A stretch of 64,000 bases of DNA, from NCBI GenBank assembly GCA_046563655.1, contig CM102288.1, positions 6,386,001-6,450,000 of the forward strand, written 5' to 3'. Both the position numbers and the translations under genes were made by a program. The DNA comes from Yuukianura sp. NJ FZ-2021. Its lineage: Eukaryota. The notes under the pieces are model-generated. The model did not search any database and was not told the origin of the DNA. It worked only from the letters and a program-made list of their open reading frames with translations. Below, piece after piece: positions 3,288 through 58,001 of the stretch (its first letter is position 1; each line of letters starts with the position of its first letter).

Positions 3288-6200
3288 TTATAATTTGGAG
3301 TAAGTTGGAGGAGAGACCCACTTCCGAACGAACTTGGCCAAGTAGATCGGCAGACAGGACAGCGTCGTGATCAGCAACACCTTCCAGATGAACGGAAACG
3401 AAAAAATAAAAGTAGCATCTGAAACAATTTCAAAAAAAATGTCAAACTCAAATTCCAAAACCACACAAATCGAAAGAAAAGTCTCATTTTTTTAATCTTA
3501 CCAAAAAACTGGTAGAAAAGAAATAGCGTGCCGACGTAGAAGAGCAACGAAATAAACTCCGCCACCAGCATCACTGTCAACATAACATTGGTAATTAGCT
3601 GATTTCGAATCAAGTAACTAATTAACTTGGACTAATCGATTAATCATAGCTTTTCCTTACATTTGTGCATGTTTCTGATGGTGAGTGCGACCATGATGAG
3701 TTCCGTGAGGATGAGTGACGTGAATGAGATGGACACGATATGAATGAACTCATCTTGGAACAGAATGAGACTCCCATACATGATGACAGAACCTTGAAAA
3801 ACGGAGATGAGGACCCAGAGGAAGAACGTTTTGTAGGTCAAAGATCGACCTTTGCCCAGCTCAGAGTAAAGTTCAGGCAGACGCATCAAGTCAGCCTCCT
3901 TCACGTCCTGGTCCAACACAAGCGCAAACACAGGAAACATCGTGTACACTGTAGCATATCTGCAAAAACACAAAAAAAAAGTCAAAAACTGAAAATTATT
4001 CTACTTTTTTTTTCCAATTTTTTTGAAAAACTGACCCAATCATGAGGAATCCTTGGTAGAGCGCCACGGAAGAAAAGTAGAAGATGGAGGAGAAGACTGC
4101 TTGCATCACAGTGATTATGAGACCGCGATGCATCACAAACTGTGCAAGAGACGCTGATCGCTTGTAGCAGTATCGTCCATGCACCAACTAAAAAAAAACA
4201 AATAAAAAAATACATTATTAGTTTTCACAAGGATGTTACAGACGCGTGCTAGGGCTTGGCCTCAGACTAACTCAATCGTCATACTTTCTGAATCATGATT
4301 TTTTTCCCCTAAAAGCACTACTGTAGAAAGTTGGAAGGTGTAGTAGGATGGTGTTTTAAAAAACAATATGTATTTTGGAGCTTTTTAAATTTCTATAAAA
4401 AAGGAAAATGTACTTTAGTGAATTTGTTAGCCTAATCCTGACTTTATCCAAAAGTCCTTCTGTAGAAAGTTAGAAGGTGTGATAGTGTTTTTAACAACCC
4501 AATCCCCAGCAAATTTCAAACTTTCATAAATGAGGAAAACCTGCCATAAGCAGGTGATTGTGTTATTTTTCAGCATTAGGAAAATATTTTAGAAAGTTTA
4601 AACCCACACAACACTGACAACTTTTAAGTTGAAAAATTTGAGAGAAAAACAAAACAAATGAATTTAGTAACTTTGGAATTCCGGATTTACCTTACGCGTA
4701 GTTTCTCATTAGTATAAAGGATTTAGTTAATTACATTTATCCTTAGATTTTGATTTAAATTCATCGTATCTTACCAAAAGAGGAGCGATGAAGCTGAACT
4801 GCGTGATGGAGAAATCTGCTGCCAAACTGGCTTGTCTTCCCTCTTTCCCTTCCAGCCCAATTCCAGCGTCAGCAGCCTGGATCATGGCAACATCATTCCC
4901 TCCGTCTCCAATCGCTGCTGTCCTCTTCCCCGTAACTTCCTGGACCAATGTGACCACTTGTGCTTTTTGGGTCGGAGAGCATCTACAAACTAAACAAAAA
5001 CAACATTAGTTAGTTAATCATCTTCAGATTAGGATAGTTTTAGATTAAGGTAATGTTGACTCACCTACTACTGCTGGACTGGCACAAGCCAACTCCATAA
5101 ACTCCTTTTGGTAAGATTCTAAACAAACTTCCAGCGATTCTCCCTTGATGATCAGTGGAGAGGAGTCTGCCCGTCGCTTATAAGCGTTGAGCTGCGCAAA
5201 GGCCCACGCTCTCTCAGTCAACTCAGACTCTGGTGGTTTTTCCTCAAACACAAAAACTTCCTGCTGCGAACTGACCAGTTTGGAACTCTTGGCAATGCAA
5301 ATGGCAGTCTCCAGCTTATCTCCAGTCAACATCCAGATCTTGATCCCAGCATTCCGCAGAGTCTCCAGAGTAAACTTCACATCTACACACAAAATTCTGT
5401 CATTTAAATCCATTTTCGTAGGAATTGGTGCGAAATCAATTGGGCCGAAAGAATTGGATCATAAGTTCGAAAACTAGTTGGAAAGTACCTTTCTGCAGAG
5501 TGTCTTCTACTCCAGTGACTCCAATGAGGTCCATATCTTTCTCCAGAGAGTTCATGACCTCCGTCATGAGATTGGCTCGATCTGTTTTGCTCGTTTTGGC
5601 GGCAGCATATCGTCGTTCAAATTCTGTGTAAGTTGCCAAATCCAGTTTCCTCTTGGCCACAACGAGAGTGCGCAGACCTTCTCTGGCCATGTTCCCAACT
5701 GCCTCCTCCAACCAATCATTGTAACGCACAACACTCTTCATCACCACATCTGCCCCCTTCAGGTAGAAAGTCAACTCCTCCCCCTCCTACGAAATGCAAT
5801 AATATAAAATATATAAAACAGTAAAACATAATATAAATAATATAATTTAAATAATATAGTATAAATAATTACCTTGACGATGATGCCCATTCGCTTGAGA
5901 TCCGACGTGAAGGGGAAGATGTGCAGAATTGAAACGTGGACAGTGAGACCGAGGTCAGTTGCATGGAGAGTCATGCTGGTCTGGTCTCTCCTTCGCAGCG
6001 ACAATCCAGCATCCATCGCCCACTTCACAAGAGCAATCTAAACAGTGAAATATATTTCATATTTCATATTATATTATATTTATATTTTATATTATATTTT
6101 TTTAAGATTAAGTTACTTCGTCAGGACTGGAAGCCTGGTACATGACTGGCATTTCCACTCCGAATCCCATTTCTGGATCTTCTTCCATGGGATTTGGGCT

Positions 6201-9612: not shown

Positions 9613-12600
9613 AAATTTTTCCGTAAAATATTGACTTAGACGTTAATTGACTTTTCGCATAAAAAGTTAAAAATATTACGTTAATCGACATTGAGCGCAA
9701 CTGTTGTAAACCAAAACGGCACAGCACTAAACCAAAACTTTGCCTATTGCCGGTGCAATTCGACTTAAATCTTTATCCAGTTGCTGGGTTTAATATTGGG
9801 ATCATTTCTGTAAACTTTCATCCCCATGTACACGACAGGTCATGGGTAACTGCGGGTCGAATGTCACCATGCTATCCTATAACCACCCCATGCAAATAAC
9901 ATATCGTTGAAAGGATATCCTCTTCAATCCCTGATTCAGAAAATGTATATTTTGCTTTGTACGGTGTAACCCAAAGAAGTTGTGATTAATTCCGGAATTG
10001 AAACTTCCATTGCTACATGTCTCTAAGGATTGCAGCGATTAAATATTTACTTATTATAATATTTATTAATAACTGGTTAAAAACTTCACTCAAATCGCAC
10101 CGGCAAAGATTTACGGGGTTTTGTGCCAGCTCCTCTTGCAAGTTCATGTTCAGCAAAGGAGATAACCGGATATGCCCGGTGTTTTCGGCCGCGGACAGAC
10201 TTTGCTCTTACAAATAAAATGTACTGCTGAAGTTGTGTAACGGCGGCTTAATATGAAAACTGACCTGTTTGCTTGGAATTGCTCCATCCCCTGCCTCTCC
10301 ACCTGTTGTTGTGCGAGACATGAGATGACTTCAGAACTGACTTAAAAACTAGTCACTCATCATGAAACACCATAAATAAATCTCCGAAATGAATCCGAAA
10401 ACCTGATCTAGAATTAAAAATTTCTGTGTCAACCTTATGAATACAGTTGGAATGAATGCCGTGTGTGACTAGTAATGGTAAACGGTAACTGCGGACAGGG
10501 AGTACTTTGTTTCTTTGTGGTTTGAGGTTTCCTACACTTCCAAAGTGAAGCTTCCGCCCGAAGGAAGGAGCTGCGGACGTGATGATGACGAGAGATGCAA
10601 TACCCAGTCAACTATGCAGATCAACAAAAGATTTTGCAAGTAAAACAAATTCTTCAAAGTAGATGTTTGTAATAAGATCTTGTCCTTTTTGTTCCAAAGG
10701 CCACAAAACTCGAAAACTTTAACCTAACGTCCACACCAAAACGTTCCAGATATGAGGCATGACAGACGAGGATGTACCGATCCTCCACTGCGCTCAAATA
10801 AATGAACAAACCGACAACCGATGAGACAACGATTTAACGGCCAAGCTTCTAATCTAACAAAAGCCCATCCGGGGCGAAAGAATGGACCCTAAGGGCCTAA
10901 AAACTAAAGGTACCGAGGGAAAAAAACAGGGCAAGCCAGTACATGGCCTATAATCATTGTCTGGTCATTGCGACTTTTTAGAGGTAATTTTTTTTCGATT
11001 TCTCTCAAAAATGTACTTGACCTTGACCGTTGACACGGAAGTTGTCCAGTTCCGGTCAAACCGGAAACCAATTAATCATCTGCACACCATGTGCAATTTA
11101 TCTGTGAAGACAGACTGAAAATCGGTCCAGTGGTTCCAGGGGTAGCCTGACCACCAGACAGGCAGACAGATCCTGGTAAAAACATAAAGTAGCTCATACT
11201 TCCGCTACTTAATACACACCCATATATTTCTTGCTCCAGTTGAATAGTATCGTAGGCAACTCGCAACGGATAATTCCATAGAGGAGTTGCGGATAATTTT
11301 CCAAATGTGGGAATTTCGTCGAGCCTTGATAAAAATGAAAAAGTTTAAAGTGAACGATTCAATAGCTTTTGATTTTTAAATAACACAACGATAGCGTTAT
11401 CTCAAAATAAAAACGTTAAATTTCTCAAATTTGACGCGGTTTTCAATGCAACGAAAACTGCCGCTTAAAAAATTTTCTGCAAATTTATTTTTGGAAATTT
11501 ATTAATATAATGAACCACGACAAGATTGCTATAGCGACCATTTATACTAAAATGGTGTAAGAAATGGCGTAAAAATATAAGAAGAAATAAACAAAATTTT
11601 GAATTAAACAAGCTTGGAACCACGAAATTTACCAAACTAGTCAAACATTTTCAGAAACTGACAAATATGGATGTTAATAATTGACTACCGTTTCACTGCT
11701 ATTTCAAACATAAGCAACTGTTCTGCATCCTATACACACGTTTCGGACTAAAACTGAGTTTGAATACCATATTCGTATTTCTCATATTTTGAATTGTTTA
11801 AGCTTTTTGTGTTTAATTCAAACCCCGTGAACATAGTTCAGCCCCATTTTTTCCATTTGATATCTATTGGCGAATTCTCGAAAAAGTTGATTTCCGGTAA
11901 TACTGATGGTATCGAATGAACGTTGGTTTTAGTCCTACAGGTTACGAGGTTTTCAAGATTATTTGATGAGGTTTCCTAAATCCCACGAGTATTGAACAAA
12001 CTACTTCTCCTAAAAGCCGTGCTTATAGCTGAAGGTTTATTGTAGTATTATGTGATGTGTGCTCATCATTCATAATACTAAATTTCACATTAACTTATTT
12101 GTGCTAAAAATTTATTTAAATTTAGGTGTAACCTATAGGTACACCTAACGCTGTAAATATTAAACAACTCTCTCCTCCTTCTTATCACTTTCAATTGAAG
12201 TTACCGTAAAGTTAACATTTTGGAAGGGACAGATGTTTCCATTAGTAGATAAATTTTTTTTACTTCTTGTTGGTATTGTTATTTCCTGCTTGTGGTTAGA
12301 CATTTCCTTTTGTTTTGTCCGGTTTTCGCAGAAACACAAGTACTTAATAATCAGTGTGATTGGTAAAAGGCGATGACCAACTTTAACAAGAACTCTTACG
12401 GTACAGGGTGAGCAGCCTAATTTCGGTCCTCCAATTACCGCTTGTTTTTAATTTATAGCATCTACTGTATTGTGTTTTATTGTAAATCGTACGAGAATTA
12501 CTTTTGATTAGATCTCTATACATTTTTACTGATAGATCTCGAAAATTGGGAATGGTTTATTAGCTGTAAAAAAATATAATTTCTCATGCTTTGCTGAACA

Positions 12601-12613
12601 TTCAAAAAATAAG

Positions 12614-12642
12614 TATATAAGCACTGCACGTCGAGTTCAGTT
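12614..12642 (+). promoter_or_regulatory. TATA box + arthropod Inr, probable core promoter of the terpene synthase
   Basis: TATATAA at 12614 and TCAGTT at 12637. The same arrangement is conserved in the duplicate at 26605/26629, upstream of the terpene synthase pseudogene. Confidence 0.6.
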
Positions 12643-12743
12643 ATTAACTTATTCACACCGCACAGTGTCGTAGGATACAGTCAAAGTAGAAATTTTTTCT
12701 ATGCCCATTTTCTTTTTTTTTTATTTAAATATAAACGATTAGA

Positions 12744-13211
12744 AATGAACCAAATTGCTCCTAAACCCGAATTGGACAGAAACTTTCCACAAAACCGAAA
12801 ACTCGGAATTTCGGAATTTTCAAAGTTTTTGGGCATTATGGTAGGTTTTCTATGATTTTTTTTTTAACTTCAAACGGATATTTTTCAAAATCTGAGTTAG
12901 TGTGGATTTTTAACTTTTCTCCTCAACTCTCAATTTCCATAGGCATATTCGAAACATTTATACGGGATTACTTAGAATATGCTTTTGAGGCATCATCTCA
13001 AATTTGGCTCCGACGTTCCAATAAGTCACTGTAGCTCCAATCAATTTTGTTACCGATTGCGGACATCGAACCGTCTTCCGCAGTGAAATGTTGCATCCAG
13101 TAGTTAATATCTGAGCAATAATTCAAGAACCATAAAAACTTCCAATTTCAGAGTTTCCGTTTTTTCAAAAACGTCCGCACAATTCGGTTTTTGGGATCAA
13201 TTTGGTTCATT
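12744..13211. mobile_element. Degenerate inverted-repeat element in the probable 5'-UTR intron of the terpene synthase
   Basis: AATGAACCAAATTGCTCCTAAACCCGAATTG at the left pairs with CAATTCGGTTTTTGGGATCAATTTGGTTCATT at the right. Confidence 0.55.
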
Positions 13212-13321
13212 ACAAAATTTAATTAAATATTCAAGCAATTTGTAATAAAATATTCATTCCGACTTTGAGTAGATTTCACGAAACTGTTCCACATCTATTT
13301 TATTTAGCTTTTGAAATAAAA

Positions 13322-14520
13322 ATGGAAGGCGTCACTGACGAATGTAAGAGTAGAAAATTTGCTAGCCGGAGTCAGTAATTGTTTCAAAGTGAGCGATACC
13401 TTAACTTTTATTCAAAATGTTTTCAGTTGTTCATCAAGAAGGCAAGGTTGAATTCGACATAGCAATCTCTAACCAACCAAATGGTGATATTCGTCTCCGC
13501 GGGACTTTTCCTCGCATTAAACCGCGAAAGGAGCGACCTGAGGTGGATGGAGAAATTATCCAAAGCCTCCTGTCCAAACTTTTGAACTGGATTGGTGAAT
13601 ACTTTGACATCTCAAAACGACGAGAAGATTTCCAAAATCTCGCCACAACTTGTGTCGTGTTTGCGGTTTATATCGACCCTTGGTCATCTTTTGACAGTGA
13701 TGTGATGGAACTGGAACTCCAATTTACCTTTTGGTGTAGCGCAATTGACGACTTTATTGAGAGATCTCCACCTACGGCGGTGAAAATGATTCGAGATCAA
13801 AACGAATATTTTCAGCGAATATGGCACCAAGATGACACAGACCTTGAACCTCCAAAAGAAGTCTGCGACTTGTTTGTTCCATTGTGTAATTCTTTGGTGG
13901 CAATTCGTGACCGAATGCGATTATTCGCAGGATTCGAAGAGGCGTTGCCTAAAATACTTTATTATCGTAGGAAGTACGACAGGGCAGCAGAACTTGTTTG
14001 CTCAGTTCGGAATCAGGCATTTCTGAACGTAGACATGTTTAAATATTGGAGAAATATTGTATTCTTTATGGAGGGACTTGTCCTGACCTTTGCCGTTCTC
14101 CATGACATTGTTCCAGGCAAAATGGCATTGGAATCACCCTATATGGCCAGATTATTTTTTCTCGCGCAAGCTTATGGATTCTTAACCAATGATTTGTTAG
14201 GAGTCAAGAAGGATGTTCAAACAAAGGAGCAGAATTTTGTCTTGTTTATGCTGAAGGACAACCTGGAACAAATCGACCTCCAGAAGAAGGTGAATCTATG
14301 TGTAGAACAAATTTGTGAAGAACTAAAAGAACACGTTGAGGAATACATCGATCTTAGAGCCAGAGTTCTAAATGCCTATCCCTCAGACGCAAAATTAGAA
14401 AAGTTTTTAGATTTCTGTGACGCTGGTATGGACGGGCAATTACAGACATATGTGCAGGGTTCAAGGTACTTACTAACTCCTAGTGATTCAGTCATTATGA
14501 AACGTTATGTAAATGATTAG
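13322..14520 (+). CDS. Class I terpene synthase of microbial type (Terpene_syn_C_2-like), 2 coding exons
   Basis: ~370 aa. IDDFIE (DDxxD/E, ~13747), a conserved Arg (WRNIV), NDLLGVKKD (NSE/DTE variant, ~14188) followed by N-F-V, and C-terminal GSRY. Exon 1 (13322-13343, MEGVTDE) splices via GTAAG...TTTCAG in phase into the long ORF at 13427. Confidence 0.85.
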
Positions 14521-15160
14521 GAATACAAAAATACTAGAACATGAAACGAAGCAAGTACGTTGTAAGTTTGTTAGAAACAAAAATAGATTTGTAAAAACAG
14601 ATGACAATTTTGCATGTGGAATTCAATATACGCGGTCATGCACATCGTCCGAAACTATCCTGGGAGCCTATTTCTCGACTTTGTTGACGAACGAAAAAAA
14701 ATTCCTCCGTGGTGGTCTACCACATATAATTTTTTAAAAAATTTTTGGAGGGAACTTTTCCCTCCAAAAATTTTTTTTTCCTTATCTCTTTTTTGCTCCT
14801 TATCTCTAAAAAAACCCTTTTCCCTCCAAAATCGAGAACTACGACAAAGTCGAGAAATAGATACACACAGGGCATTGCTGTGTTAGGTATGGGAGGTTTC
14901 GGACGATGGTCATGCATAGCATTGAAAAGCTATATCTCCGAATTTAAGTTTCATTTATTTCAAATTGGTTGAATATATTAGAAATCGAACACTAATGTTG
15001 TGTTTAACATACTCGTACGATTCCAAGCTTGTTTAAATAGAAATTTTGTTTGTTTTTTCTTAACAACATATATCAGCTACTTTTTCTGTTTCTTTCCAAT
15101 TTTTTGAAACGCACATCTGGCGAAGTTACGTTGTGGTTGCAATTGGAACACAACCTATAA

Positions 15161-15256
15161 ATGATGAGGGCTGTAAGCCACTACTGCCCCCGCAAATCTC
15201 AAGTTGCCCCAGGTATTTATGACATGAAGTCAGTAGTGGCTTACAGCTCTCATCAT
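15161..15256. repeat. Short hairpin / mini inverted repeat
   Basis: ATGATGAGGGCTGTAAGCCACTACTG pairs with CAGTAGTGGCTTACAGCTCTCATCAT (26-bp arms, 1 mismatch). Confidence 0.7.
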
Positions 15257-16426
15257 ATATATCAGAACCGATAAATTATAGAACTTTAAGAGATTATTGT
15301 AAAAATCAACAAAATTGGTAAAAAAAGTTGTTTTTTTCTGAAGGTAAATAGAATGATACTAAGTAGTAATAGCAGAAACTTTGTTAGGGTACCGCGGCAT
15401 TTTTTCTATGCGTGACTCGTTAAAAATTCCTGTCATCGACATATAAAAATTCTAGCCAACACAAGCGCTATATGGGTTTCTTTAGGATACTATCATTACT
15501 CCCGGAGTTCTGGTGTTTTTTCAACGACTGATGTCACAAACAAAAACTGCATTGGCTGCTAAAAGAGACGGACACAGTGTGCTGGTTCTTTCTTGTTTTT
15601 TTTAGTCCAAAGTTATGTTATATCCTATTGCTGCATTTGTACAAATGGCCGCTACAGCAACCTTGTAGGATTCTGGGGCGGCAACTGCCCAGGTTTCTGA
15701 ACGAAATTGAACAGTTTTTAGCTACTGTTAGTTGACAATAGCCAAAAGCTAGATACCGCAACCGTGATTGTATAGTAAGCTTTAAGAAAATTAAGATCCA
15801 ATCAATTGTCAGAAATGGTAGTCTAACTAATTCCAATGGCACCACGTTACTTCAACTGCAATAACTGCCATTTAAAAATACGCCACAATTAAGTTGCGTT
15901 GAAAAATTTAAATTGATTGAAGCGCCGTCCTTTCACTTCCTAACCTTAACGAATTTATCCCTCCCGCGTTTTTGTCATTTAACTCAATGACAACAGAGAG
16001 AGTCTGGGGAGGAATTTGAAAGTTAGCAAATGACTACTCTGAGCGAGTGAGTTAGAATGAAAAGAAACCTAGTATTTAACTGCGCTGACTAGTATAGAAT
16101 TTCACTCACTTAAACACTAAATATAACCTGTCAGTTCTCAAATTTGTTCCACAAATTAGGACCCGAATGAAGCAAACTTTTACTATCAAACCATTACGAG
16201 AATTTTAAACATACTTTTTAGCTCTAACGTTAGTAATAGAATAAATTTTATAAACGCTTTTGACCAACTACTTCAAGTATTTCAACCCACTACGAGCAAA
16301 TTGGCAGGTATGTCCGGCAATTAAGAAAAGTCTTATTGTATGTTATTGGTGAAACTGCATCCGCAGACTGTTAATTCAAAGCCGTATATAAATAGCAGTG
16401 TTTACAGAAAAGCGATCTTAACGAAA

Positions 16427-18951
16427 ATGCTTTCAAAGAAGGAGTTTGACCATTGCCAGACTATCTTGAAATTCTTTTCAAAGGTTAAGTTTTGTGAATT
16501 TGGTTCCCAAAACAATTTATTATGTCGAAACGACTCAAAGTTAAAGAAGGTTTGGAATACTTTCGCAGTTGTGGCTTATGGCTTACAGTTGTGGCAACTG
16601 TATTACGCAATCCAGCGAACAGCTGCTGCTGGAAATCTTTTCCATAGCTTTTTTCAATGTGGAACATGCGGATATATTGTTGGAAGGTTGGGCGTCTGGG
16701 CAACTGTTCAGTTGTATGAAGGAGAGACGGTGCAACTATTCAACATGATTTTGCTGATGCAGAAGCAAGGTGGAATTGTGTTTATTGTGGCATAGCATGT
16801 AGTATGGCATGGTGGTATGGCCTGACATTGTCGCATGGTGGAGCCATGTTTTGTAAATGTATTAAAGTTTATTAGAATTAAATGTATCGGAAACCCCTTT
16901 TTATATCAACTTTGACTTGCTGACCTGCGGTTGACCGATGATCTCAGCAATGAATCAATATTTTCTGGATCAGATTTACTAGTGAACAACGGCAGAGTGG
17001 GTATTAACTAGTGAACATCAGCATGGTGAATCATATATAATTTCAGGCGAAAGGTCTAGCTCAGCAGGTTTTATCCCCGATATAAATGTTATGTATAAAA
17101 GTTGTTCATCTCTCATCTAGACAAACAACTTTTATGCAAGTTACCCTAGTTGAGCTACTTTGAAATCAAATGTAAACTTATAAATTTTTAGGTTGGGTAA
17201 CCTGGTAAAAATTTGGTTCAGTTTTGCCAGTGTGAATGTTATGTACCACCGTTTTTCACTAATTTTCACGGTTTACAACCGATAGATTGAGGGTGAGGCC
17301 ATTTTTAGAAAGGTTAAGGACGTGTGGTATGCGTCTAATAAACCATAATCGTTAAATTTAGTAACCACGATAACCGAGCTTTTGCAGTTAGTAAAAGATG
17401 CAGACATCGACAAAAAGAAACACCCTCGTGAGTGGTGAAAAAGGATCAGTGCAAAGGTGATCAAAAAAAAGTATGCACTTTCAAACAAACAAAATACTGA
17501 CACAAGTTCGGTTGCCGTCGTCTGGGTTTTGTCAACAACTTTTCTGAGGCTGCGACATTGAAATTGAAAAACGTTCTGGGTCAGCGTAGGAATGTACAGT
17601 GACCCACAATATATCAAACTTTAGCAAAAGACTTGATCTAGTACCCCGCTGAAGAAAAATTACAAAATTTTAGTTCTATCTGTGTAAATATGGAGGTGGA
17701 ATGTTTGGGTCAATTTTTTTCACAGTTAGAACGAAAATTTTGTAATTCTTCTTCAGCGGGGTACTAGATCAAGCTTTTTTCTAAAGTTTGATATATTGTG
17801 GGTCATTGTACGACCTTCCTACGTTGATCCAGACCATTTTTCATTTCATAAGTTACAGCCGCATGTTGACCCCCAGTTTCCAGGGATTTCGCGAGCCTTA
17901 AGTAAACAAACTGGTGCAAAGGTCGTAAGATTTAGGTTTAGGTCTAACCTCACACTTTTTTGTATGACTTACTGTAAATGTAACAGTTTAGAATTATAGT
18001 ATATTTTCTTGATTTTGTGGGTAAATCTTTTCATCTCAATGAGAATATGTTTTAATTTCCAGGGGTACGCTATTTTGGAAAAGAATACTCTGCTGACACA
18101 AATTTAACTAGCAGGGCTACGACGTGCCTCAAGTACATTTTGTATTTCATCTACACGTCTCATTTCATTCTACAGTTTTTTATTAGAAATGAAGTATCGA
18201 CTCTGTTTCTCGAAGTCAAAGAGCGTCTGGGTCTGGGCTACATCAGTAGCACCTTACTGTTCTTGATGGTACATGGAGCTTTACACATCGACTTGGCCAT
18301 CCATATACATTTCTATATCTGTCTGATCTACATGGCCCAATTTTGTCTTTACTTTTGGACTAAAGTTTCTTGGTGAGACAAAAACATAAATTATAAGCTC
18401 ACAAAAATTTCTTATTTTGTATTTCATTTAATATTTGTTTCTTTTAATATTTATTTATCATTTGTTTCAGCGTCACTTGGCCGATTGAGGCAAAGGATAG
18501 CGCTAGCATTGACAAAATATTGCATGTTTATAATCAAGTCAGAATTTTAAACGACATGAGCAATACAGTGATCGGAAAAATTGGTGGACTAATTTGGAAG
18601 ATTACTAGTTTATTGGCAGTTGGAATTTCCCTATACATTCTCATCCGGCTGAACGTCAAAATCAAAGACTTAGGGTTATTGATCACTTTGTTTATATTAT
18701 TAATCGGTGGTACCTTTGGGTCATTTGTCATTTGTTGGATTATGGCTAAGTTGTACAAAGTGTCATTGGACTTGAAGTGGAACATCTTTCGGAATGCGGA
18801 GCTGTCAAACAACAAGCTGAATAGAAAAATAATTTCGAGCCTTCCCGTAGTTCGTTGTAGTTTCGGCGGTGCCTACTACATAGAGGACAGAGCGAGACTA
18901 ACGGTATTGGACACAATCATTCAAATCGTGGTCTTTTTGTTGTTGGCATAG
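16427..18951 (+). CDS. Gustatory-receptor-like 7TM chemoreceptor, 3 exons
   Basis: Exons ~16427-16770, 18063-18372 and 18471-18951 join in frame via GT-AG (~380 aa). Multiple hydrophobic helices; YNQVRILND motif; GR-type C-terminus RCSFGGAYYIEDRARLTVLDTIIQIVVFLLLA. TATATAAA at ~16385. Confidence 0.75.
17548..17860. mobile_element. Palindromic non-autonomous element in intron 1 of the GR-like gene
   Basis: GTACAGTGACCCACAATATATCAAACTTTAG...CTTGATCTAGTACCCCGCTGAAGAA is mirrored by TTCTTCAGCGGGGTACTAGATCAAG...CTAAAGTTTGATATATTGTGGGTCATTGTAC; arms ~130 bp. Confidence 0.75.
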
Positions 18952-20684
18952 AGCATTTCGAGTTTCATTCAGAACCTTTCAACCGAAAGCAGAAAATTAT
19001 TGTAGTTCAAAGCGACTTGTAGCTTTGTAGTAGTACATTGCTTTATATGAAAGCTTGTTGCAAAGAATTTGGTTATATTGTATGCGATACAAGTATTTTC
19101 TTAACCCATAAGACCACAATTGCTGACAAAGTTTAACTTCAATATGATTCTTGGATGTGATACACTTGTTGTATTCGCGACAGCAACATTTAAGGCATTA
19201 AAAATTCATTAGATAGGTACCTTGGAAGTTTTGTTGGTATGCTTAAATATGCAGGTGACGCATGTAGAAAAATAAACGAATAAAGTACGAAGAATAAAGG
19301 TTTGAAACGACTTTGGGGCACGCAAGAACAAACAAGATAAAAAATCAAACGTTGGCAAACAAAAAATTTACTAGAAATCAAGAAAACTTTCAAGCCATGC
19401 AAAATTTAATAAATAAATCTTTACTCAAGTTCATTTGTTTTTTTATAAGTTGAAATATTGAAATTAAAGTTAAACAACTCATGTTCAATTGTGTGGTACA
19501 GCACACCTTTCAACAGTTACTAAAAAACCATCAGATAATTCCACTTTGAATCATTTTGCTACTGAATTTTTCTTCTTTGTTGTTGTCGCAACGTTTAAAG
19601 TTGCAAATGAAAATGTACTACATAATAGTACTATGATGTACTGTACATGTGCGTAGAACTCGGTTTTTTCTCAAAACCAGTTCACCGGTTTTTTTGATTG
19701 GTTGACATGGAAATGAAATTAACATGTATAGCGGTTTTTATTTCTATGAAAAACACATATATGTGTCATCCCAAAGCAACAACCGCTCGTGAGACTACCT
19801 TAGTAATGCGGTGTGTGGGTGTGTCTTTTTTCTGTTTCCGTGTGTCATCTTGGGGCTGTACTCGGGTCAGGGGGTGGCAAAAATGCCTTAGCGACCAAAA
19901 CCGATTCTTGAGTTGTTTACAATTTCACTCGCAATGACGTCACTCCAAGTGAAAATACAGGTTCATCCGAGTTTTTAAGCTATTTTTATGTTTGCGGCGA
20001 AGGTATTGAGACTAAAATGATGAAAATGTTGAACAGCACTGTAAATGAGTGAACTCGGACTGAAAAAAATCTCATAGCAACTCAGTATTGAAAAAGGTTT
20101 TTCATTTGCCGAAGGCAATTGTTTTCACAGATGAACTTCACATGGTCCAGGGGTGAACAAGCGGTATGCCGTTTAACCGGAAGCGACCAACTTCCGAGGT
20201 CAAGTACATTTTTTCACGGAAATGAAAAAAATGATCCTTACAGAAAGTGTTCATCATGAGACAACAACTCCGCCACCTATGACCTGGTGATTCAAATGTA
20301 TTAATCATGGTCACAAACCCTTATCTACAATTCGATACTTAGTTACGGCGTTTACAACGGTTTATTACCTTTAAATGCATACCTGTAACGACATACATTT
20401 AGGAGAAATTGTCTTATGTATTATTTTAACTATTATTCTAGGTACTATTGCTTTTGGTTTAACTGAACATTTTACCCCAGCGCAGAACCCTCTTGTAACA
20501 CCTGCTCGTATTAAACCTGAATGATACTCTTGAAGCTACTACTTAGGGTTATTTTCTCATTAGAAGAATTTTCTACAAACGTTTACAACATATTAGAAAC
20601 TGTTTTTATGAGCCAAAGCCACGGATTAGTTTTATTTACTAAATTAGCGGAATAAAATAATCGCATTGGCACCCTTTAACATTT

Positions 20685-25650: not shown

Positions 25651-26604
25651 GTATACGATTTGCATATACCGCGGTTATACAGCGTTCCGAATGCACAGAA
25701 ATTTTGTTTCCCCTCTTGCACCGTCCATTCTCCATATCCTAAAATACAAATTTTTGGAGTTGTACTATTATGGTCGATTGTTGTGGTTGAAAATTAGGTT
25801 AGCTTGATTCAACAACGTCTTTTGTAAGTTTTATTTCAAAAACTTTGGAAACTTGAAACGAAAAAAAGGTTAAGCTTACTGTCCTTGTGATTTTGATCGC
25901 AGATTATATAACTATTTTAAAATGAAATGTAGGAAAAGAAATTTCAGGAATCGAGGGTTATGAGAACTTAGAAATGAACCGTGGAAAATTGGAAACCACC
26001 AAATAAATCAAGAGGATGGAAACGCAGTTCCATAGAGATCGGACAGCTGTAGGAAAAGCGTTTGTTCCCTATTTCTAAATTTCTAAGTCACCAATCAAGC
26101 CTATGTTAGGTCAACCTACGTTAGAACAAACATAATTTTTGAAGTTATATGATTTGTGAGTGCAAATTGTATGTTTTCTCATTCCAAACCTTTCACATCA
26201 TTTGCCCTCTTGTTTGAAATTTATTTTTAACTAGGCAACTACGTCGTCAATGAATTAAGTCACATTAACAAATTAAGTTCGTCTTTTCTAAACGGCAGTT
26301 TAACTAGTGACCAAGGTCGTAATGATCCTGAACTGGGCATGTTCCAGAGCATGCTCCACTAAACGCACAGTCAAGATTACCACAGTCGCAACAGTCTAGA
26401 ATTTGACGTTGACTAGAATCTAATTGATTACAACTAGACGGACTTTCACCACGATTTGGCTGGCGTTCACAAGGATTTGACTGACTTTGAATAGCATTTG
26501 GGTGACCTTAACGAGATGGGTGATAGGCCTCCTAAATTACAAATGGTTCGTTAGCATGAGAAAAAATTATTCCTTTTTACACGCATTGTTAGTGAAAAGC
26601 TAAG

Positions 26605-26634
26605 TATATAAAGCAGAGCGTTTCGGGTTCAGTT
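26605..26634 (+). promoter_or_regulatory. Duplicated TATA + Inr core promoter upstream of the terpene synthase pseudogene
   Basis: AAGTATATAAAGCAG...GTTCAGTTATTATCTTCTTCACACCACACAG closely matches AAGTATATAAGCAC...GTTCAGTTATTAACTTATTCACACCGCACAG at 12611-12665. Confidence 0.6.
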
Positions 26635-26675
26635 ATTATCTTCTTCACACCACACAGATCCACTCAAAGCAGCAA

Positions 26676-26798
26676 TTTTAAATTTCAGCCCAATCGGTAG
26701 AAAAATGGCGGACTTATAACGAATCACCGCTTTAACTGCTCGCTATAGAATTCGCTATAACACGGCCATTTTGCAACCGATTGGGCTGAAATTTAAAA
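26676..26798. repeat. Short inverted repeat (hairpin)
   Basis: TTTTAAATTTCAGCCCAATCGGT pairs with ACCGATTGGGCTGAAATTTAAAA. Confidence 0.7.
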
Positions 26799-27040
26799 AA
26801 CTTTTGTGTGGTAAGCTATTGCTTCCAGTGGAGCAAATGTGAGAATAAACTCAAGAACAACAAAGACTCCGAATGTCGGATTTTTCTCTTCTTTTTTTTT
26901 AAATTTTGATCCAATTCGGTTCTTGGTACAATTTTGCTCACTACCGAACAGTTTTTAATTAAATTCAAGAAAAAATAATTTCCACTTTGAGTGGATCTCG
27001 AGAAGCATCTCATTTTAGCTAATATTTATCAGCAGAAGGG

Positions 27041-27800
27041 ATGCAAACCATCTCTGATGTATGGTAGAGTACCAAATTTCTTAGTACAAATCATAATTGC
27101 TTTGCACATCGAAACTAGCTCGTCGAAAAAGTTTTCCGGCGTCTATCAAAAAAACCACAAACGGAACGGCCTGGCTCGGATGTAAAATAACTCCAAACCA
27201 CGTTTGAATACGTTGACGTTTCCAAGCGACGCCACTTCCAGAATCTCGCCACAGTTACTATTGTCGAGTAGTTTACACAAAGCCTTGGACAGCTTTGGAC
27301 AATGACGTTATCGACCTCAACATCAAGTTTATCTTTTGGAGCCAGAGAGTACTTCATGAGTATGTTGAAAGATATCTGTCTAACGTCATGATATATTTGC
27401 GTAATTTTTCATTCTAAAATTCGTTCCCACTGGTAAAACAGTGACAACGAAAGATTGTTGTCAGGTATATGCTTTAATATGCAGGTCACTTATGTCAAAG
27501 AACTAAAAATGTGTTTAGTAACACAACAATTTTAAGTTTATTTCTCTTTAAGCATTTAGTTACACAGGTTCAATGTTGTCCTATGTCACTATATACTCAA
27601 ATAACGTCAACGGGATCCCTCCCGAAAAAAATGTACACAAGATACATTATTTTTTAGATTCTTTTACCCAAGGTATTGAATATTTACGTACAAATGGACT
27701 TTTATTTAGTGTACCGAGATATTTGGTCATAAATTTCTGGAAAGCATATTCGCGACCATATACGACACGAACTTGGTTATAGTTTCAAAGTAAAGCATAG
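27041..27800 (+). pseudogene. Decayed terpene synthase paralogue
   Basis: Manual translation of ~27150-27350 gives KPQTERP ... EYVDVSKRRHFQNLAT ... VYTKPWTALDNDVIDLNIKFIFWS, versus KPRKERP ... EYFDISKRREDFQNLAT ... VYIDPWSSFDSDVMELELQFTFWC in the intact gene. Frameshifts and deletions are present, and the upstream non-coding DNA is also homologous. The 3' extent is less certain. Confidence 0.8.
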
Positions 27801-28734
27801 CTGTAAACTCTTGTCTTGTCATATACAAATCAGCGTATAGAAACTGATATCCACCTTGTAAATAAAATTTAAATGAAAATAGTGCCATAATAAATACTTA
27901 TGATACTCTATTATCCTTTGGTCCAAAGTAACAGTTGGAAAACTACTAATCGCGCAACTAACTCTACCACAGAAGTATGCAGGCCCTCTTCCGGTGTCGG
28001 AAGCAAAAAAAAAGATGATCTACTTAAAATGTCAGTTATATTAAAGAAAATAAGGCAATTTAATAAAAATTAATACTTTCCGAAATTCTTAGAAATAAAA
28101 ACTGGTATTGCGACGAAAAAATCCTTTGACTTTTATCACCTCTAGCAACTAAACTTAATTGGACTTGGAATTCTAATTGCATACTTTTCCAAGAAACCCT
28201 TCAATTATTTCAGGGTCTATTATTTGAATAACAAATTTAGGTACAAGATTTCGTTTCCGCTTTTTGAAACTTTCAGAAATAACGATTTTGGTTTTCAAAA
28301 TTTTTGCCCCATAATTTCTTACAAAGAAATGAATTTCCCAGCGTCCACTTTTACGTGCCACACCCTGTATAATTCATTGCATGTATTTATGCGCAAACGG
28401 TCACATCCAACAAAACCAGTAAAAAAAAATTCTAATAATTGAAAAAGTTGTCAGTGTTCTATTCACACAAGACACGATTGTCGTTTCTTTTGCGCCAGAA
28501 AGCTACGGTGAGAATTTGATTTTTATTTCTATTATTATTATCAAAGTAAATTGCTTAGAGTAACCGCTGTTTCGAAATAACTCGAGGAGCACTGCCACCA
28601 GTATTTTAAAAATGGCGGGCATATCCTGCTATTAGGAATAGTGTTACATCGTGTAATTAGTAAAATTGTTTCAGGAGGCTTACTTAAAAACTGTAAATAA
28701 ATAACTTTTTCAACTTTCAAAGAACCCATCCAAA

Positions 28735-29046
28735 ATGCTCTCAAAAAAAGAATTTGACCACTATCAAAGTACTTTCAAGTTCTTTTCAAGGATAAAGTTC
28801 TTTCCATATCGTTCCAAAAACAATTTGCTATGCCGAAACAAGTCAAAGGTCAAAAAAGCGTGGAACTACTTTTTTTGTTGTGGCTTCAGGCTTATAGTTG
28901 TGGCAACTGTTTTATGCCGTTCAGAAAACAGCGAAGACGGACAATTATTTTATACTACGTTTCAAACTGGAACATTCCTATATGTTGTTACAAGATTTGC
29001 TATCTGGGCTACCCTTCAGGTCTACGAAGGAGAGACGATCCAACTA
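28735..29046 (+). pseudogene. Truncated copy of exon 1 of the GR-like gene at 16427
   Basis: MLSKKEFDHYQSTFKFFSRIKF...NNLLCRN...WATLQVYEGETIQL versus MLSKKEFDHCQTILKFFSKVKF...NNLLCRN...WATVQLYEGETVQL. The middle is frameshifted and restored; the copy is then cut off by repeat DNA. Confidence 0.85.
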
Positions 29047-29304
29047 GACCTAACCTAAAATGTGTTACAGGTTACTAGGTTTATGAAGCACGTCTTGCAT
29101 CGAGGTTGCCTATTTTTCACTCTAAACTGACAATTATCCGGGAAACGGTTCGATATTTCCCGAATCTATTTTCAATATTGCACTCCTAGCAAACCGGGAA
29201 GTTCACTATTGATTGTCATCCCGGTGACTCAACTCCAGCTGGGTCACAGGTTAACGTCAATCGCTTTTATGCCCTGCAGCATGAAAAATGACCTATGCAA
29301 AAGC

Positions 29305-50945: not shown

Positions 50946-52364
50946 ATGCAAAGAATCGGCTCCATTTTTGTTCTGGCTTTGGCGGTCGCCGCTGTTGTCG
51001 CTCGACCATCCGACATTGAGAAACGACTCATCAAGACAAGCGAAGATGGACAGGCACAGTGGATGTCTTACGAACAAATCATCAACCTCAAGAAGTCACA
51101 TATCTCCTTCAGAGACATCACCGATTTGTCAGCTAGCCCCAGGCCAATCAAAACTCTAAACGAAGATCGTAAGTCTCATTTTTCAAATTTTTCAATTTTT
51201 TAGAATTTGAACAAGAATCAGTGTAATTCTTGCTGAGGCGTCGCCCAGAACCCGTTTTAGAATTTTTTTTTAATTTGAACCAGAATGCTTCATGTTCCTG
51301 CTGGGCCTTCGCCACAGACAGTCTTATATTTTTCCATTTTTTATTTCATTTTGAACAAGAATGCTTCACATTCTGGCTGGGGTGGCGTCCAAAATTTTTC
51401 CAACCCATTTTTATTAAGAAGTTCCTTGAGAATTTGTTTAAGCTGATTCTTTTTTTTTTAAACTATTAAATTTGAATTTTTTGAAACAGGAATTCCCGAG
51501 GAAGTTGTGTACCAAGATTCCGTGAACAGCGTCTTGTCTCACTTGAACGGTGCCAGGCAAGAGGCCTTCCTGAGGACGTTCTCTTCCTACTTCAACCGCT
51601 ACTACCGGGACCAAACTGGCTATGATTCTGCGCACTGGCTCCTCTCAGAAATCCAAGCATCAATTGCCGATTCCAAATACAATGGAACTGCCACTGCCGA
51701 GACATTCGAACATGATCGGTGGATCCAACCCAGCATCATTGCTAGACTGGAAGGTGCCGATCCATCGCTCAGCCCAGAAGTTGTGGTCCTCGGAGCTCAT
51801 TTAGACTCATTGAATTTCATCCAGAATCGACCAGCTCCGGGAGCAGATGACAACGGTTCAGGATCGGCATCTCTGCTCGAAGCACTCCGTGCTCTCCTGT
51901 ATGCCGATTTCATTCCAAAGAGGACCGTTGAATTCCAGTGGTACGCTGCAGAGGAAGTGGGTTTGCTCGGATCGGGGGCGATTGCTGAAGAGTATGTCGC
52001 CACTGGAGTGGATGTCGTGAGTATGATGAACTTTGATGTCACTGGCTACAATCCATCAGGAAACCCGACAGTGGGTGTGACCACTGACTTTGTCAATGCT
52101 AAATTGACTGATTTCCTTCGGCTGGTGATCGACGCCTACTTGGATTATGGCTGGGACAACGTTAGCTGTGGCTACGCATGCTCTGATCATGCTTCCTTTT
52201 ACTACAATGGCTTCATTTCAGCATTTCCAGTAGAACTTGAGTTCTCCCCACACATGCACACAGAAAGAGACACAATGGACACAGTGTCGATGGAACAAGT
52301 ACTGGAATTCAGCAAACTCGCTATTGGTTACACAATCGAAATCGCACAACCGCACGCACAGTAA
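50946..52364 (+). CDS. Secreted leucyl aminopeptidase, family M28 (bacterial/fungal-type), 2 exons
   Basis: Signal peptide and propeptide in exon 1 (50946-51168), in-phase splice to 51490. Zinc-ligand motifs GAHLDS, PGADDNGSG, AAEEVGLLGS, NFD, CGYACSDHAS. Confidence 0.92.
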
Positions 52365-55370: not shown

Positions 55371-55844
55371 GGTCATTTCAGACCATAAGACCATCTCAGA
55401 CCATCAGACCATTCTTAACCATACGACCATTTTGGATCATAAGAGTATTTTTGATCCGACGACCATTTGGAGCTCATGCGTCTGCTGGTCGCTTTTGAAC
55501 GGCTAAAAACTTACCGTATTTTCTCGCTAATAATGTGCAATTATTTTTAAAAATTACTTAGATAAAATTTCTCCCTCGTAAAATTTAGCGAAATAAATTT
55601 TTGAATGAAAATTTGTTCAAAATAAGAATTTTGCATTTAAAAAATTCAATTTTGAAAGAAGAGTAAGCGGAGGTATTTTGAAGATAGTTCTATTGCAGTT
55701 GTGTAACAGAAATGTGGTTTGGATGCTGCGTGTGGTGCAATAATTGAGTCTCTCCAGGTCAAAGATTATCCGGTGACCACATGTCAAAAGAGTTTTAGTT
55801 TTGTTAATCTTAATTTCCATGTTCATTTCCACTTTGGGCACACA

Positions 55845-58001
55845 ATGGTTCGGACTCTCGTGTCCATCGACGCTACGAAGTGTGCTGAGGACCAGGCAGT
55901 GCCTGGACATGTCCACAACCGATGGCACCCCGACATCCCAGCTATAGCCACTGTCGCACAGGACGAAGTGTTTCGACTAGAGTGCTTCGACTGGACAGGT
56001 AACCCTGTTTTCCAATCTCAAAAGTTTTGTCAATTGGAGGGAGTAACTATCTTTCCTCTGGGGTTACAGAAAAAAGCTATGATTTGTGAAATAGTTACTC
56101 CCTCCACTATTTGGAACTTTACAGAAAATTCCCATTTGTAAAATAGTTACTCCATCCACTTTTTGGAACTTTACAGAAAATTCCCATTTGTAAAATAGTT
56201 ACTCCCTCCACTTCGTCGAACATTTGTAGAAAATTTCTATTTCTGAAATAATTTGAAACTGTTACTCCCTCCACTTTCTAGAACCTCTAGAGAAAACTTC
56301 CTTTTCTGAAATAGTTACTCCCTCCACTATTTGCAACTTGTATTTTCAGGAGGTCAGATCAAGAATGACGACGATGCCCGTGACGTGCTTGAGGTTGACT
56401 TGAGTAGGATCCACGTGTTGAGTGGTCCAGTGGGAGTTGAGGGGGCGGAGCCAGGAGATGCTGTTGCCGTGGAGATCCTGGACATCCAGCCCCTTCAGGG
56501 CTCCGACTGGGGCTACACCGGAATCTTCGACAAGCAAACAGGATGCTTCCTCTCCGACAAATTCCCAACAGCCACCAAAGCCATTTGGGACTTCCAAGGA
56601 ATATTCGCCACTTCCAGGTCTAACATAATTAACACTTTCAGGTTTACGTGTAAAATGATGTTCATGTAACACTACACGCAAAATGATGTAATTACATCAT
56701 CTGTTATGTATTTTATGTGATTTGAATTTTGTGCGAAGCTAGACACATTCCGGGAGTTAAATTTCCGGGAATAATTCACCCGGGAATTATCGGGACTGCG
56801 CCGTCGCAGGAGCTGCTGGACCAATGGAATGTACGGGAACAGAAACTGATCACTGATACAAAGGGAAACACTGCACCAGGTTACCAATTTTCAAAATTTT
56901 GAAAAGTTTTTCAAAATTTTGACGCCTTTTTACCGTGTAAATTATTTTGATAGTTGCTTATGGGCCGAACCCAGTGGGTGCCTTGGTGGGTCAACTGGAG
57001 GGAACCCCGCTGGGTGAAAAGGTGAAGCAGGAGGGGGCTCGAACAATTCCACCAAGAGGTCAGTCTGTTCACTTCAATTAACTAGACAGCCAATAGAAAT
57101 GCAGCATTCAAACTATAGAGCCAATAGGAATGGGGAATTCAAAAAATAGAGAGCCAATAAGAATGCTGGATTCAAAAAGTAGAGAGCCAATAGGAATCCT
57201 CTATTTTTTTGCAGAAAACGGCGGGAATTGCGACATCAAAAACTTGTCGCGTGGTTCAAAAGTGTGGCTGCCAGTTTTTGTTCCTGGAGCGAACATCAGC
57301 TTGGGTGACATCCACTTTTCTCAAGGCGATGGAGAAATTGCGGTAACGAAATATATAAATAATAATTATTTTTTAAATATATGTTATTAAATTTGATATT
57401 ATTAATATGTTTTAATAGTTTTGCGGTGGAATTGAAATGTTTGGGGCTGTGACGTTGAGAGTTCGTGTGATTAAGGATGGGGTGAAGAAGATGGGGTTGA
57501 AAAACCCGATTTTCATGCCAGGCCCAGTTGAGCCCCACTTTTCAAAATACTTGACCTTCGAGGGCATCAGTGTCACTGAAGACGGGAAACAGCACTACTT
57601 AGACTCCAACTTAGTAAACTAACTTATATTTTATATCTATTTATTATTATATACATTTATTTATATTTATAAACTTTTTCAGTCTTTCAGAAACGCCTGT
57701 CTCAACTGCATCGAATATTTCAAGAAATTTGGTTACACGGGAGAACAAATTTACACGCTGCTTTCTGCCTGCCCCTGCGAAGGCAGAATCAACTCCATCG
57801 TCGATGGTAACTTCAAAATATTTTCAAAATTTATCAAATTTTTATTCATTTTTTGATGTTTTCCAATTTTTTTTTTCAGTTCCTAATGCTTGTTGCTCCG
57901 TTGCTGTTCCAGTTGACGTTTTTGATTTTGACATTACCCCAAAGGACGCTCCTTTCCAGAACGTCTGCCGCGGAAACGTGGCTCTCGTCAAACCAAAGTA
58001 A
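55845..58001 (+). CDS. Formamidase/acetamidase (FmdA_AmdA family), about 8 exons
   Basis: HNRWHPDIP, ECFDWTGGQIKNDD, HVLSGPVGVEGAEPGD, HPGIIGTAPS, ARTIPPRENGGNCDIKNLSRGS, GDIHFSQGDGEI, FCGGIEM, VDVPNAC, FDFDI; GT-AG introns. Confidence 0.93.
56030..56330. repeat. Intronic tandem array of the TAGTTACTCCCTCCACT motif
   Basis: Five ~55-bp spaced copies plus one inverted copy (GGAGGGAGTAACTA) in formamidase intron 1. Confidence 0.7.

Follow-up and report, generated by a model that had tools for sequence, protein, structure and literature searches.

A spliced gene for a probable microbial-type class I terpene synthase with a Gly/Asp second metal-binding motif in Yuukianura sp. NJ FZ-2021

We analysed a stretch of 64,000 nucleotides (nt) of Yuukianura sp. 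NJ FZ-2021 (GenBank assembly GCA_046563655.1, contig CM102288.1, positions 6,386,001 to 6,450,000 of the forward strand), here called the window, in which an initial annotation made from the sequence alone had proposed a single-domain terpene synthase of microbial type with about 370 amino acids (aa). The longest open reading frame (ORF) of the window is found at this place (13405-14520, plus strand, 371 codons from stop to stop), and given the stop-codon frequency of the window (0.054) the chance that a frame of 371 codons stays open is about 1e-9. After splicing, the coding sequence (CDS) consists of 13322-13343 joined to 13427-14520, that is 1116 nt coding for 371 aa with a single alpha domain, which agrees with the size and domain layout first proposed. 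Residue numbers given below are those of P0001, the 367-aa translation starting from an internal ATG at 13417, and are converted to the numbering of the spliced protein by adding four.

The gene model is correct to the base. Four public sequencing runs cover the locus (X1 to X4, all from one sample and one study, with the kind of library not on record, the entry 'DNA?' for X4 being a guess), and their contigs were aligned to positions 10500-19500 of the window. One X4 contig of 1332 nt passes directly from 13343 to 13427, skipping 83 nt with GT..AG ends, and is anchored by 86 letters on the upstream side and by 13427-14672 on the downstream side, while the intron is retained in contigs of X1 (11533-13525), X2 (11526-14671) and X3 (13195-13766). 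The donor reads GAAT/GTAAGA at 13343/13344 and the acceptor TTTTCAG/ at 13426/13427. Whether X4 represents an RNA library or a processed DNA copy, this junction shows that the intron was removed exactly at the predicted site, and the synthase gene is expressed, or at least spliced. The proposed joint was thus exact and keeps the frame; the description of the intron as lying in phase after codon 7 needs amendment, since it is a phase 1 intron that splits codon 8. The only ATG within 13258-13343 is the one at 13322, and the ATG at 13417, an in-frame alternative, is located inside the intron. As controls, shuffling produced a phase-compatible ATG..GTAAG exon upstream of the acceptor in 222 of 5000 cases, and in the window itself one was present at 1 of 92 acceptor-like sites. 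Introns of the FER tyrosine kinase gene elsewhere in the window measure 39-151 nt; four of the seven gaps read have a GTAAG donor, and the acceptors are CAG or TAG. A further joint in an X1 contig (13533 to 16424, skipping 2890 nt) was dismissed as unreliable, its short side of 24 letters being below the required 31.

The same X4 contig sets minimum extents for both untranslated regions. Its 5' end falls at about 13258, inside a TCATTC site resembling an initiator element (Inr), and although contigs cannot prove a transcript start, the coincidence is a suggestive hint to the start site. Such TCAKTY sites occur at 2.05 per kb in the window, so that an Inr-like site here is at chance level. Neither TATAAA nor TATAWAW is present within 13100-13330, and no TATA-like hexamer (up to one mismatch) lies at -34 to -26 of the TCATTC; of the TATA box and initiator first annotated upstream of the gene, the former is therefore absent from this interval and the latter reduces to one site at chance density. 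Near the gene end, AATATA at 14625 is the only hexamer resembling a polyadenylation signal.

Table 1 Coordinates of the synthase gene, its motifs and the surrounding features within the 64,000-nt window (residue numbers of P0001)
Feature	Position	Strand	Remarks
Inr-like TCATTC, possible transcription start region (weak)	13254-13259	+	only TCAKTY in 13100-13330
Exon 1, minimum extent	13258-13343	+	5' untranslated region (UTR) 13258-13321; ATG 13322; 7 codons and base 1 of codon 8
Spliceosomal intron, GT..AG, phase 1	13344-13426	+	83 nt; X4 contig joint 13343 to 13427
Exon 2	13427-14520	+	remaining CDS; stop TAG 14518-14520; PF19086 on residues 103-304
First metal-binding motif DDFIE	13747-13761	+	residues 111-115
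Arg212, candidate pyrophosphate sensor	14050-14052	+	46 residues before Asn258
Second metal-binding motif NDLLGVKKD	14188-14214	+	N258, G262, D266; Gly/Asp variant of the NSE triad
RY pair	14464-14469	+	R350, Y351, preceded by Y345 (Y-x4-RY)
3' UTR, minimum extent	14521-14672	+	X4 contig ends at 14672; high-copy repeat begins just past
Tandem segmental duplication, copy 1	12530-16738	+	synthase and next downstream gene; copy 2 is 26521-29046
Decayed paralogue	27152-27405	+	residues ~35-127 only; frameshifted; Asp-rich motif lost (LHEYVE)
P450 gene	22814-24356	+	two exons matched, 4.5e-20 and 1.5e-51
Ionotropic glutamate receptor-like gene	33.4-34.4 kb		
Receptor kinase	47.5-48.5 kb		
Ly6/Quiver domain	49.2-49.6 kb		
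FER tyrosine kinase	60.5-63.9 kb		

Searches with sequence and profile support the identification of the encoded protein as a class I terpene synthase of microbial type (PF19086) rather than an isoprenyl diphosphate synthase, in line with the identity proposed at the outset. P0001 reaches 26.8 bits against PF19086 (Terpene_syn_C_2), above the curated cut-off of 23.7 (E 5e-6, profile positions 2-198 of 199). At E<=10 the other Pfam matches were three weak, unrelated families without a polyprenyl synthase among them (HMMER filters drop most matches above 0.1), and neither of the plant terpene synthase families PF03936 and PF01397 was reported at this threshold. The protein of 371 aa consists of a single alpha domain, unlike plant-type synthases with their additional N-terminal beta domain. 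All 13 members of A1, an alignment of 13 full-length family sequences including P0001, carry PF19086 and no other Pfam family (best E 2.3e-22). P0001 by itself gave only a chance match (E 2.4) when compared by phmmer with the sequences of the PDB. Searching with the A1 profile instead returned 110 PDB chains at E<=1, of which the best 60 are without exception bacterial and fungal terpene synthases of class I, e.g., 10-epi-cubebol synthase (6.2e-25), T-muurolol synthase (1.5e-22), presilphiperfolanol synthase (8e-21) and pentalenene synthase (about 4e-17).

A structure prediction points in the same direction. The AlphaFold2 model built on A1 has a mean predicted local distance difference test (pLDDT) of 87.0 and a predicted template modelling score (pTM) of 0.88, and the all-alpha class I terpenoid synthase fold is the one recovered by the model for P0001. 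In a Foldseek search, which gave 222 matches at E<=1e-3, pentalenene synthase ranked first (E 3.5e-8, template modelling (TM) score 0.66/0.76), and the top matches pentalenene synthase, BcBOT2 and CyS all had a probability of 1.00 with TM scores of 0.61-0.70 by query and 0.69-0.81 by target. The structural alignment with VIA-align placed selinadiene synthase highest (4okm_A, Z 30.6, root mean square deviation (rmsd) 2.9 A, 316 aligned residues), and its best 50 entries (Z 27.5-30.6) were terpene synthases throughout, except for DabA and KabA, which are N-prenyltransferases with the terpene synthase (TPS) fold. The nearest clusters in the ESM Atlas all belong to PF19086, from fungi and bacteria. 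Isoprenyl diphosphate synthases, which would have spoken against the assignment had they or a different fold come out on top, occurred neither among the best 60 of the 110 PDB profile matches nor among the best 50 structural entries.

The model additionally predicts an N-terminal beta-hairpin at residues 8-34 (about 13438-13518, block pLDDT about 88-90), involving the first ~35 residues of the protein. It holds the family-conserved motif PR(I/V)KP and pairs in the model with a C-terminal strand of residues 358-363 (about 14488-14505). Those PDB profile matches that cover the N-terminal part begin at about residue 44-62, and DabA and KabA give the structural alignments that extend deepest into the hairpin, starting at model residue 7.

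The catalytic motifs named in the initial annotation, DDFIE, NDLLGVKKD and RY, are all present (Table 1). Seven columns of A1 are invariant in 13 of 13 sequences (P88, D111, D112, N258, D259, D339 and R350), and Y351, Y345, G340 and A291 are conserved at 90% or more. The fifth residue of the first motif is E in seven and D in six of the 13 sequences. P0001 has a single Asp-rich motif, as opposed to the two DDxxD motifs of enzymes derived from isoprenyl diphosphate synthases. In the profile alignment to 10-epi-cubebol synthase (7zrn), Arg212 is aligned with an Arg of the bacterial enzyme, and the Arg of 'YWRN' as well as the ND, RY and DD positions match their bacterial counterparts, with the bacterial Trp before RY aligning one position before the Tyr of the family. 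Baer et al. reportedly found in 2014 that the pyrophosphate-sensor Arg of bacterial enzymes lies 46 residues upstream of the NSE triad.

The initial annotation had read NDxxGxxxD and Y-x4-RY as variants and had suggested a possibly unusual product chemistry. Both readings are real. N258, D259 and G262 fit (N/D)Dxx(S/T/G)xxx and Asp266 replaces Glu, a conservative change of one carboxylate for another, so that the strict bacterial form NDxxSxxxE is not matched. Within A1 the middle ligand is Gly in ten and Ser in three of 13 sequences, and the last ligand is Asp in six, Glu in six and Ser in one, Asp266 thus being common to five of the 12 other members. A maximum-likelihood family tree was computed from 15 sequences, leaving aside the short fragments P0008, P0009, P0011-P0014, P0019, P0020 and P0023 as well as the near-identical Folsomia isoforms P0025-P0028. 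In this tree P0001 groups with P0002 and P0003 at 100/99, all three having NDxxGxxxD, inside an all-Gly group of ten that includes both Folsomia candida proteins and is split at 99/96 from four Ser-type sequences together with the long-branched Gly-type P0021; P0016, for instance, is of the Ser type (NDTLSLPKE). Overall, Gly occupies the middle position in 11 of the 15 tree sequences. Judged by alignment and tree, the Gly/Asp second motif is a trait of a subclade and not peculiar to the P0001 gene, and the variant motifs, although correctly read, are common to a well-separated group that includes Folsomia proteins. A published plant consensus, (N/D)DXX(T/S/G)XXXE, likewise allows Gly in the middle (PMC5333544).

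The family itself is small, and the relatives of P0001 are distant from it. An exhaustive phmmer search with P0001 over 1,835,955,588 representatives returned 23 proteins at E<=1e-3, ten of them at 1e-10 and two at 1e-30, the nearest relative having 31% identity; no bacterial or fungal protein was identified at E<=1e-3 among these 1.84 billion representatives. For 20 of the 23 match clusters the origin was looked up, and an organism was named for two, in both cases Folsomia candida (XP_035702665.1 / OXA63589.1 and XP_021959800.1; OXA63589.1 bears the deposited name '(+)-germacrene D synthase'), with at most 24% identity to P0001. Mite or gnat names were absent from these 20 clusters. The remaining clusters come from JGI metagenomes or Logan assemblies, and one JGI relative bears a 'YacL' label that is evidently automatic. 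Since identity is at most 31% to any other sequence and none of these is known as characterised, the product is not predictable. A word-indexed homologue search gave no match for P0001 and, with the family alignment as query, matched P0017 only, and a pattern search with P0001 in metagenome contigs matched 11 stretches, none of them a relative. Using P0002, the closest relative, as query recovered its own contig L001 and a frameshifted relative with 59% identity on contig L002 (1719-2391). L001 (GC 0.39, sparse ORFs) also holds a synthase fragment (5622-5762, 57% identity to P0002 residues 61-107) just upstream of the intact gene; duplication and decay seem usual in this family. In Folsomia candida, the RefSeq isoforms P0006 and P0026 diverge only in the part that precedes a point some 17 residues upstream of the conserved VKFD, and one isoform has a first coding segment of three residues, which hints at a similarly tiny first coding exon in that species.

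Sequence comparisons identify the host as a springtail (Collembola) and place the synthase in the collembolan nuclear genome. Among the best 120 of 764 matches to the FER exon at E<=1e-10, springtails take the top three places (Folsomia candida 58%, Allacma fusca 60%, Orchesella dallaii 59%); insects and crustaceans come next with 50-55%. In a FER tree of 17 sequences the window gene groups with the three springtails at 100/100, its long branch being due in part to crude exon extraction. Besides FER, the window holds further animal genes (P450, ionotropic glutamate receptor-like, receptor kinase and Ly6/Quiver), which confirms the animal gene neighbourhood first cited against contamination. 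Contigs from two runs, X2 (11526-14671) and X1 (11533-13525), join the synthase to 1.9 kb of unique upstream DNA. The depths of X1 contigs are similar for the gene and its flanks (50.8, 52.4 and 48.4; depth does not equal copy number). The synthase has a GC content of 0.41 and a GC content at third codon positions (GC3) of 0.40, within the GC3 range of host exons (0.33-0.58). High-copy repeats at 10800-11700, 14400-15600 and 17100-18000 bracket the synthase and break the contigs of individual runs; their depth, summed over contigs, reaches from hundreds to tens of thousands, compared with about 50, 16 and 25-35 in unique DNA of X1, X2 and X3, respectively. At about 14.4-15.6 kb the rise to hundreds or thousands is seen in every run. 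Little or no coverage in some flanking bins of X4 was given no weight.

Residence in this genome is also recorded by a segmental duplication. Three collinear blastn matches with 69-70% identity (12530-12696/26521-26679, 13596-13734/27205-27339 and 16298-16738/28609-29046) link the region of the synthase to a second copy, in which a decayed paralogue lies about 14 kb downstream of the intact gene. With P0001 as tblastn query, the paralogue is found as two high-scoring segment pairs in different frames (E 8e-10, 45% and 30% identity), and a local alignment of the duplicates scored 137 compared with 29.5 +/- 4.2 for shuffled sequences (maximum 46, 50 shuffles). The region of the tiny first coding exon is uninformative in the decayed copy: the ATG is kept and the donor is shifted, with an identity similar to that of the neighbouring non-coding DNA. 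Because the synthase was duplicated together with its neighbour and one copy has decayed, it must have been resident in the genome for long. The adjoining gene (16298-18951, plus strand; ORFs 16325-16795 and 18448-18951) codes for a hydrophobic protein without a Pfam family and was co-duplicated at 28609-29058 (plus strand), its copies having about 51% protein identity and about 70% DNA identity over 16298-16738/28609-29046.

Other genes of the window were noted alongside. The P450 gene shares the strand of the synthase and follows it after 8.3 kb, the interval containing one unidentified multi-pass membrane gene. At 51462-52364 (plus strand) a single open frame of 300 aa codes for an M28 leucyl aminopeptidase (PF04389, 5.8e-33), for which the PDB offers as best matches the fungal leucine aminopeptidase A (7oez, 2.3e-55) and leucyl aminopeptidases from bacteria; it is a second microbial-type gene in the window and possibly another old transfer. 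An acetamidase/formamidase exon at 55707-56141 (plus strand; PF03069, 5.6e-12; PDB formamidase 2wkn, 6.6e-8) represents a third microbial-type enzyme within the 64 kb.

With the fold, motifs, host, splicing and duplication demonstrated here, we consider it highly probable that the locus carries a resident nuclear gene for an active class I terpene synthase of the springtail family, for which we infer catalysis, substrate and product. From what is known of the family, DDFIE on helix D and N258, G262 and D266 on helix H would hold a trinuclear Mg2+ cluster, which would bind the diphosphate of an all-trans prenyl diphosphate, be it farnesyl diphosphate (FPP), geranylgeranyl diphosphate (GGPP) or geranylfarnesyl diphosphate (GFPP), as in the characterised springtail enzymes, and Arg212 together with Arg350/Tyr351 would clamp this diphosphate. 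Ionisation would then generate an allylic cation that may be cyclised or quenched in the hydrophobic pocket, and a water molecule could replace the absent Ser hydroxyl at G262, as in plant enzymes with Gly there. The history of the gene would comprise an old acquisition shared across springtails, a local duplication and the decay of one of the copies.

Several points weigh against this interpretation. At the last ligand position of the second motif there is Asp in place of Glu, and in other synthases mutants with Glu changed to Asp or Gln lose much of their activity or change their products (PMC5333544). The springtail enzyme ScTC4 (PMC13638087) and the fungus-gnat enzyme BcTPS4 (PMC11665903) possess all motifs and were inactive in vitro. 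Furthermore, the evidence for splicing comes from a single contig in one run, all four runs being derived from one sample and the kind of library being unrecorded, the FER tree was made without proturan or dipluran sequences, and the proposed membership in the springtail clade draws on the phmmer ranking and on organism names for two of 20 clusters.

A more far-reaching proposal starts from the same features. The synthase may represent an uncharacterised deep branch defined by NDxxGxxxD, DDxxE, Y-x4-RY and the N-terminal hairpin, in which the altered Mg2+-B site and an extra lid-like sheet could give rise to a new scaffold or substrate length, and the product may then be modified by the downstream P450. 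We hold this to be rather unlikely. The hairpin with PR(I/V)KP and its C-terminal strand, and the P450 gene 8.3 kb downstream, go beyond the literature consulted and are to be taken as leads only. On the related contigs L001 and L002 there was no P450 match (best E 0.048), a full-text search, judged by title and abstract, found no paper on a springtail synthase-P450 cluster, and the accessible part of PMC13638087 does not mention P450s, transcripts or N-terminal features. If true, the proposal would amount to an animal synthase-P450 mini-cluster.

Another explanation accepts the gene as intact and transcribed and takes its product to be catalytically dead or very weak, a relic nearing decay or a protein with a non-catalytic role. 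Decay is indeed close at hand, with the sister copy 14 kb away, the fragment upstream of P0002 on L001 and the frameshifted relative on L002, and the NSE triad ends here in Asp instead of Glu, a substitution whose counterparts elsewhere cost activity (PMC5333544), while the inactivity of ScTC4 and BcTPS4 illustrates that intact motifs are no guarantee. However, an open frame of 371 codons would hardly have survived by chance (about 1e-9), all seven family-invariant residues are kept, a spliced contig exists, and Asp is natural in six of the 13 aligned members including the two nearest relatives, which argues for a tolerated and selected state. We therefore regard a dead enzyme as quite unlikely and maintain that the synthase is very probably active.

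It is very unlikely that the TPS fold serves a different prenyl chemistry here, e.g., N- or O-prenyl transfer as in the kainoid enzymes DabA and KabA. Structurally these enzymes come close: DsKabA (9m1w_A, Z 29.4, 326 aligned residues, model 7-358) and DabA (6vkz, Z 29.3, 324 aligned residues, model 7-360) are within about one Z unit of the best cyclases in VIA-align and give the longest aligned stretches, extending into the N-terminal hairpin. Yet the best 60 of the 110 PDB profile matches are terpene synthases without DabA or KabA among them, the characterised springtail relatives are terpene synthases, and the canonical DDxxE, the Arg sensor and RY are all present.

The initial annotation had further described the gene as horizontally acquired and adapted to its host. 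Adaptation is borne out by the spliced intron, the GC3 within the host range and the decayed paralogue; what does not stand is the strongest version of that description, a recent, private transfer from a bacterium or fungus into the Yuukianura species, which we judge highly improbable. The family is microbial in type and the window holds two further microbial-type genes, the M28 leucyl aminopeptidase and the formamidase, but phmmer found no bacterial or fungal protein at E 1e-3 in 1.84 billion representatives, the nearest relatives have at most 31% identity and are part of a family in which only springtail proteins carry an organism name, and the host-like composition, the intron and an old duplicate with about 70% DNA identity also speak against it. 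Finally, microbial contamination or an assembly chimera is extremely improbable: PF19086 synthases are typical of soil bacteria and fungi, and the flanking high-copy repeats (10.8-11.7 and 14.4-15.6 kb) could in principle mis-join contigs, but X1 and X2 contigs bridge the gene and the unique DNA upstream, one contig shows the GT..AG intron spliced out, gene and flanks recur as a collinear duplicate at a distance of 14 kb, and GC content and X1 depths are alike for gene and surroundings (again, depth is not copy number).

The synthase thus belongs to a kind already published, the microbial-type synthases of springtails reported in 2024 and 2026, and its variant motif is a subclade trait. Current views on the origin of terpene formation in animals are left unchanged. 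The recognition of springtail synthases as makers of new terpene skeletons, such as sinellene ether and sestersinellene, is very recent (PMC13638087), and the gene adds a well-documented member from a branch in which no characterised enzyme could be identified. With the splice junction confirmed, the CDS of 371 aa is directly usable for expression and assay. In addition, the intron, the segmental duplicate and the decayed paralogue make this locus a clean case in a debated question, namely whether such genes are resident and evolving in the animal.

Comparison with known systems places the gene beside the springtail enzymes. In 2024, canonical terpene synthase genes of Collembola were described from Allacma fusca and Folsomia candida, with AfTPS2, FcTPS2 and FcTPS5 as active enzymes (PMC11665903). 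A survey from 2026 counted 277 microbial-type synthase genes across 26 springtail genomes, 21 of which contained such genes; 55% of the genes have introns. It also characterised ScTC1-5 of Sinella curviseta, four of which were active on FPP to GFPP (PMC13638087). According to PMC13638087, springtail synthases form a clade of their own that goes back to an ancient acquisition of unresolved origin. The present synthase is like ScTC1-5, FcTPS2, FcTPS5 and AfTPS2 in its Pfam family, its single alpha domain of about 330-400 aa and its host, and frequent introns, local duplication and catalytic motifs are alike in kind. It differs in that P0001 belongs to a Gly-type NDxxGxxx[D/E] subclade, whereas the five ScTC enzymes are described as NDXXSXXXE in PMC13638087.

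With the bacterial and fungal cyclases 4okm, 1ps1, 7zrn, 8h6q (BcBOT2) and 7y50 (CyS), P0001 has in common the predicted fold (Z about 28-31, rmsd about 2.9 A over about 300-317 residues), DDxx(D/E), the Arg sensor 46 residues before the second motif, and RY, although identity in the structural alignments shown is only 11-17%. In contrast to these cyclases, P0001 has Gly/Asp instead of Ser/Glu, a Tyr one position closer to RY than the bacterial Trp, and a predicted N-terminal hairpin with PR(I/V)KP paired to a C-terminal strand, and its gene is eukaryotic with an intron. The synthases of mites (Acariformes) and fungus gnats (Sciaridae) are likewise of microbial type and resident in arthropods, with introns and family expansions (PMC11665903, PMC6275457), while published trees place the springtail enzymes in a separate clade (PMC13638087, PMC11665903). 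Insect synthases derived from isoprenyl diphosphate synthases, as in flea beetles and stink bugs, are also animal makers of terpenes from prenyl diphosphates, but their ancestry is different.

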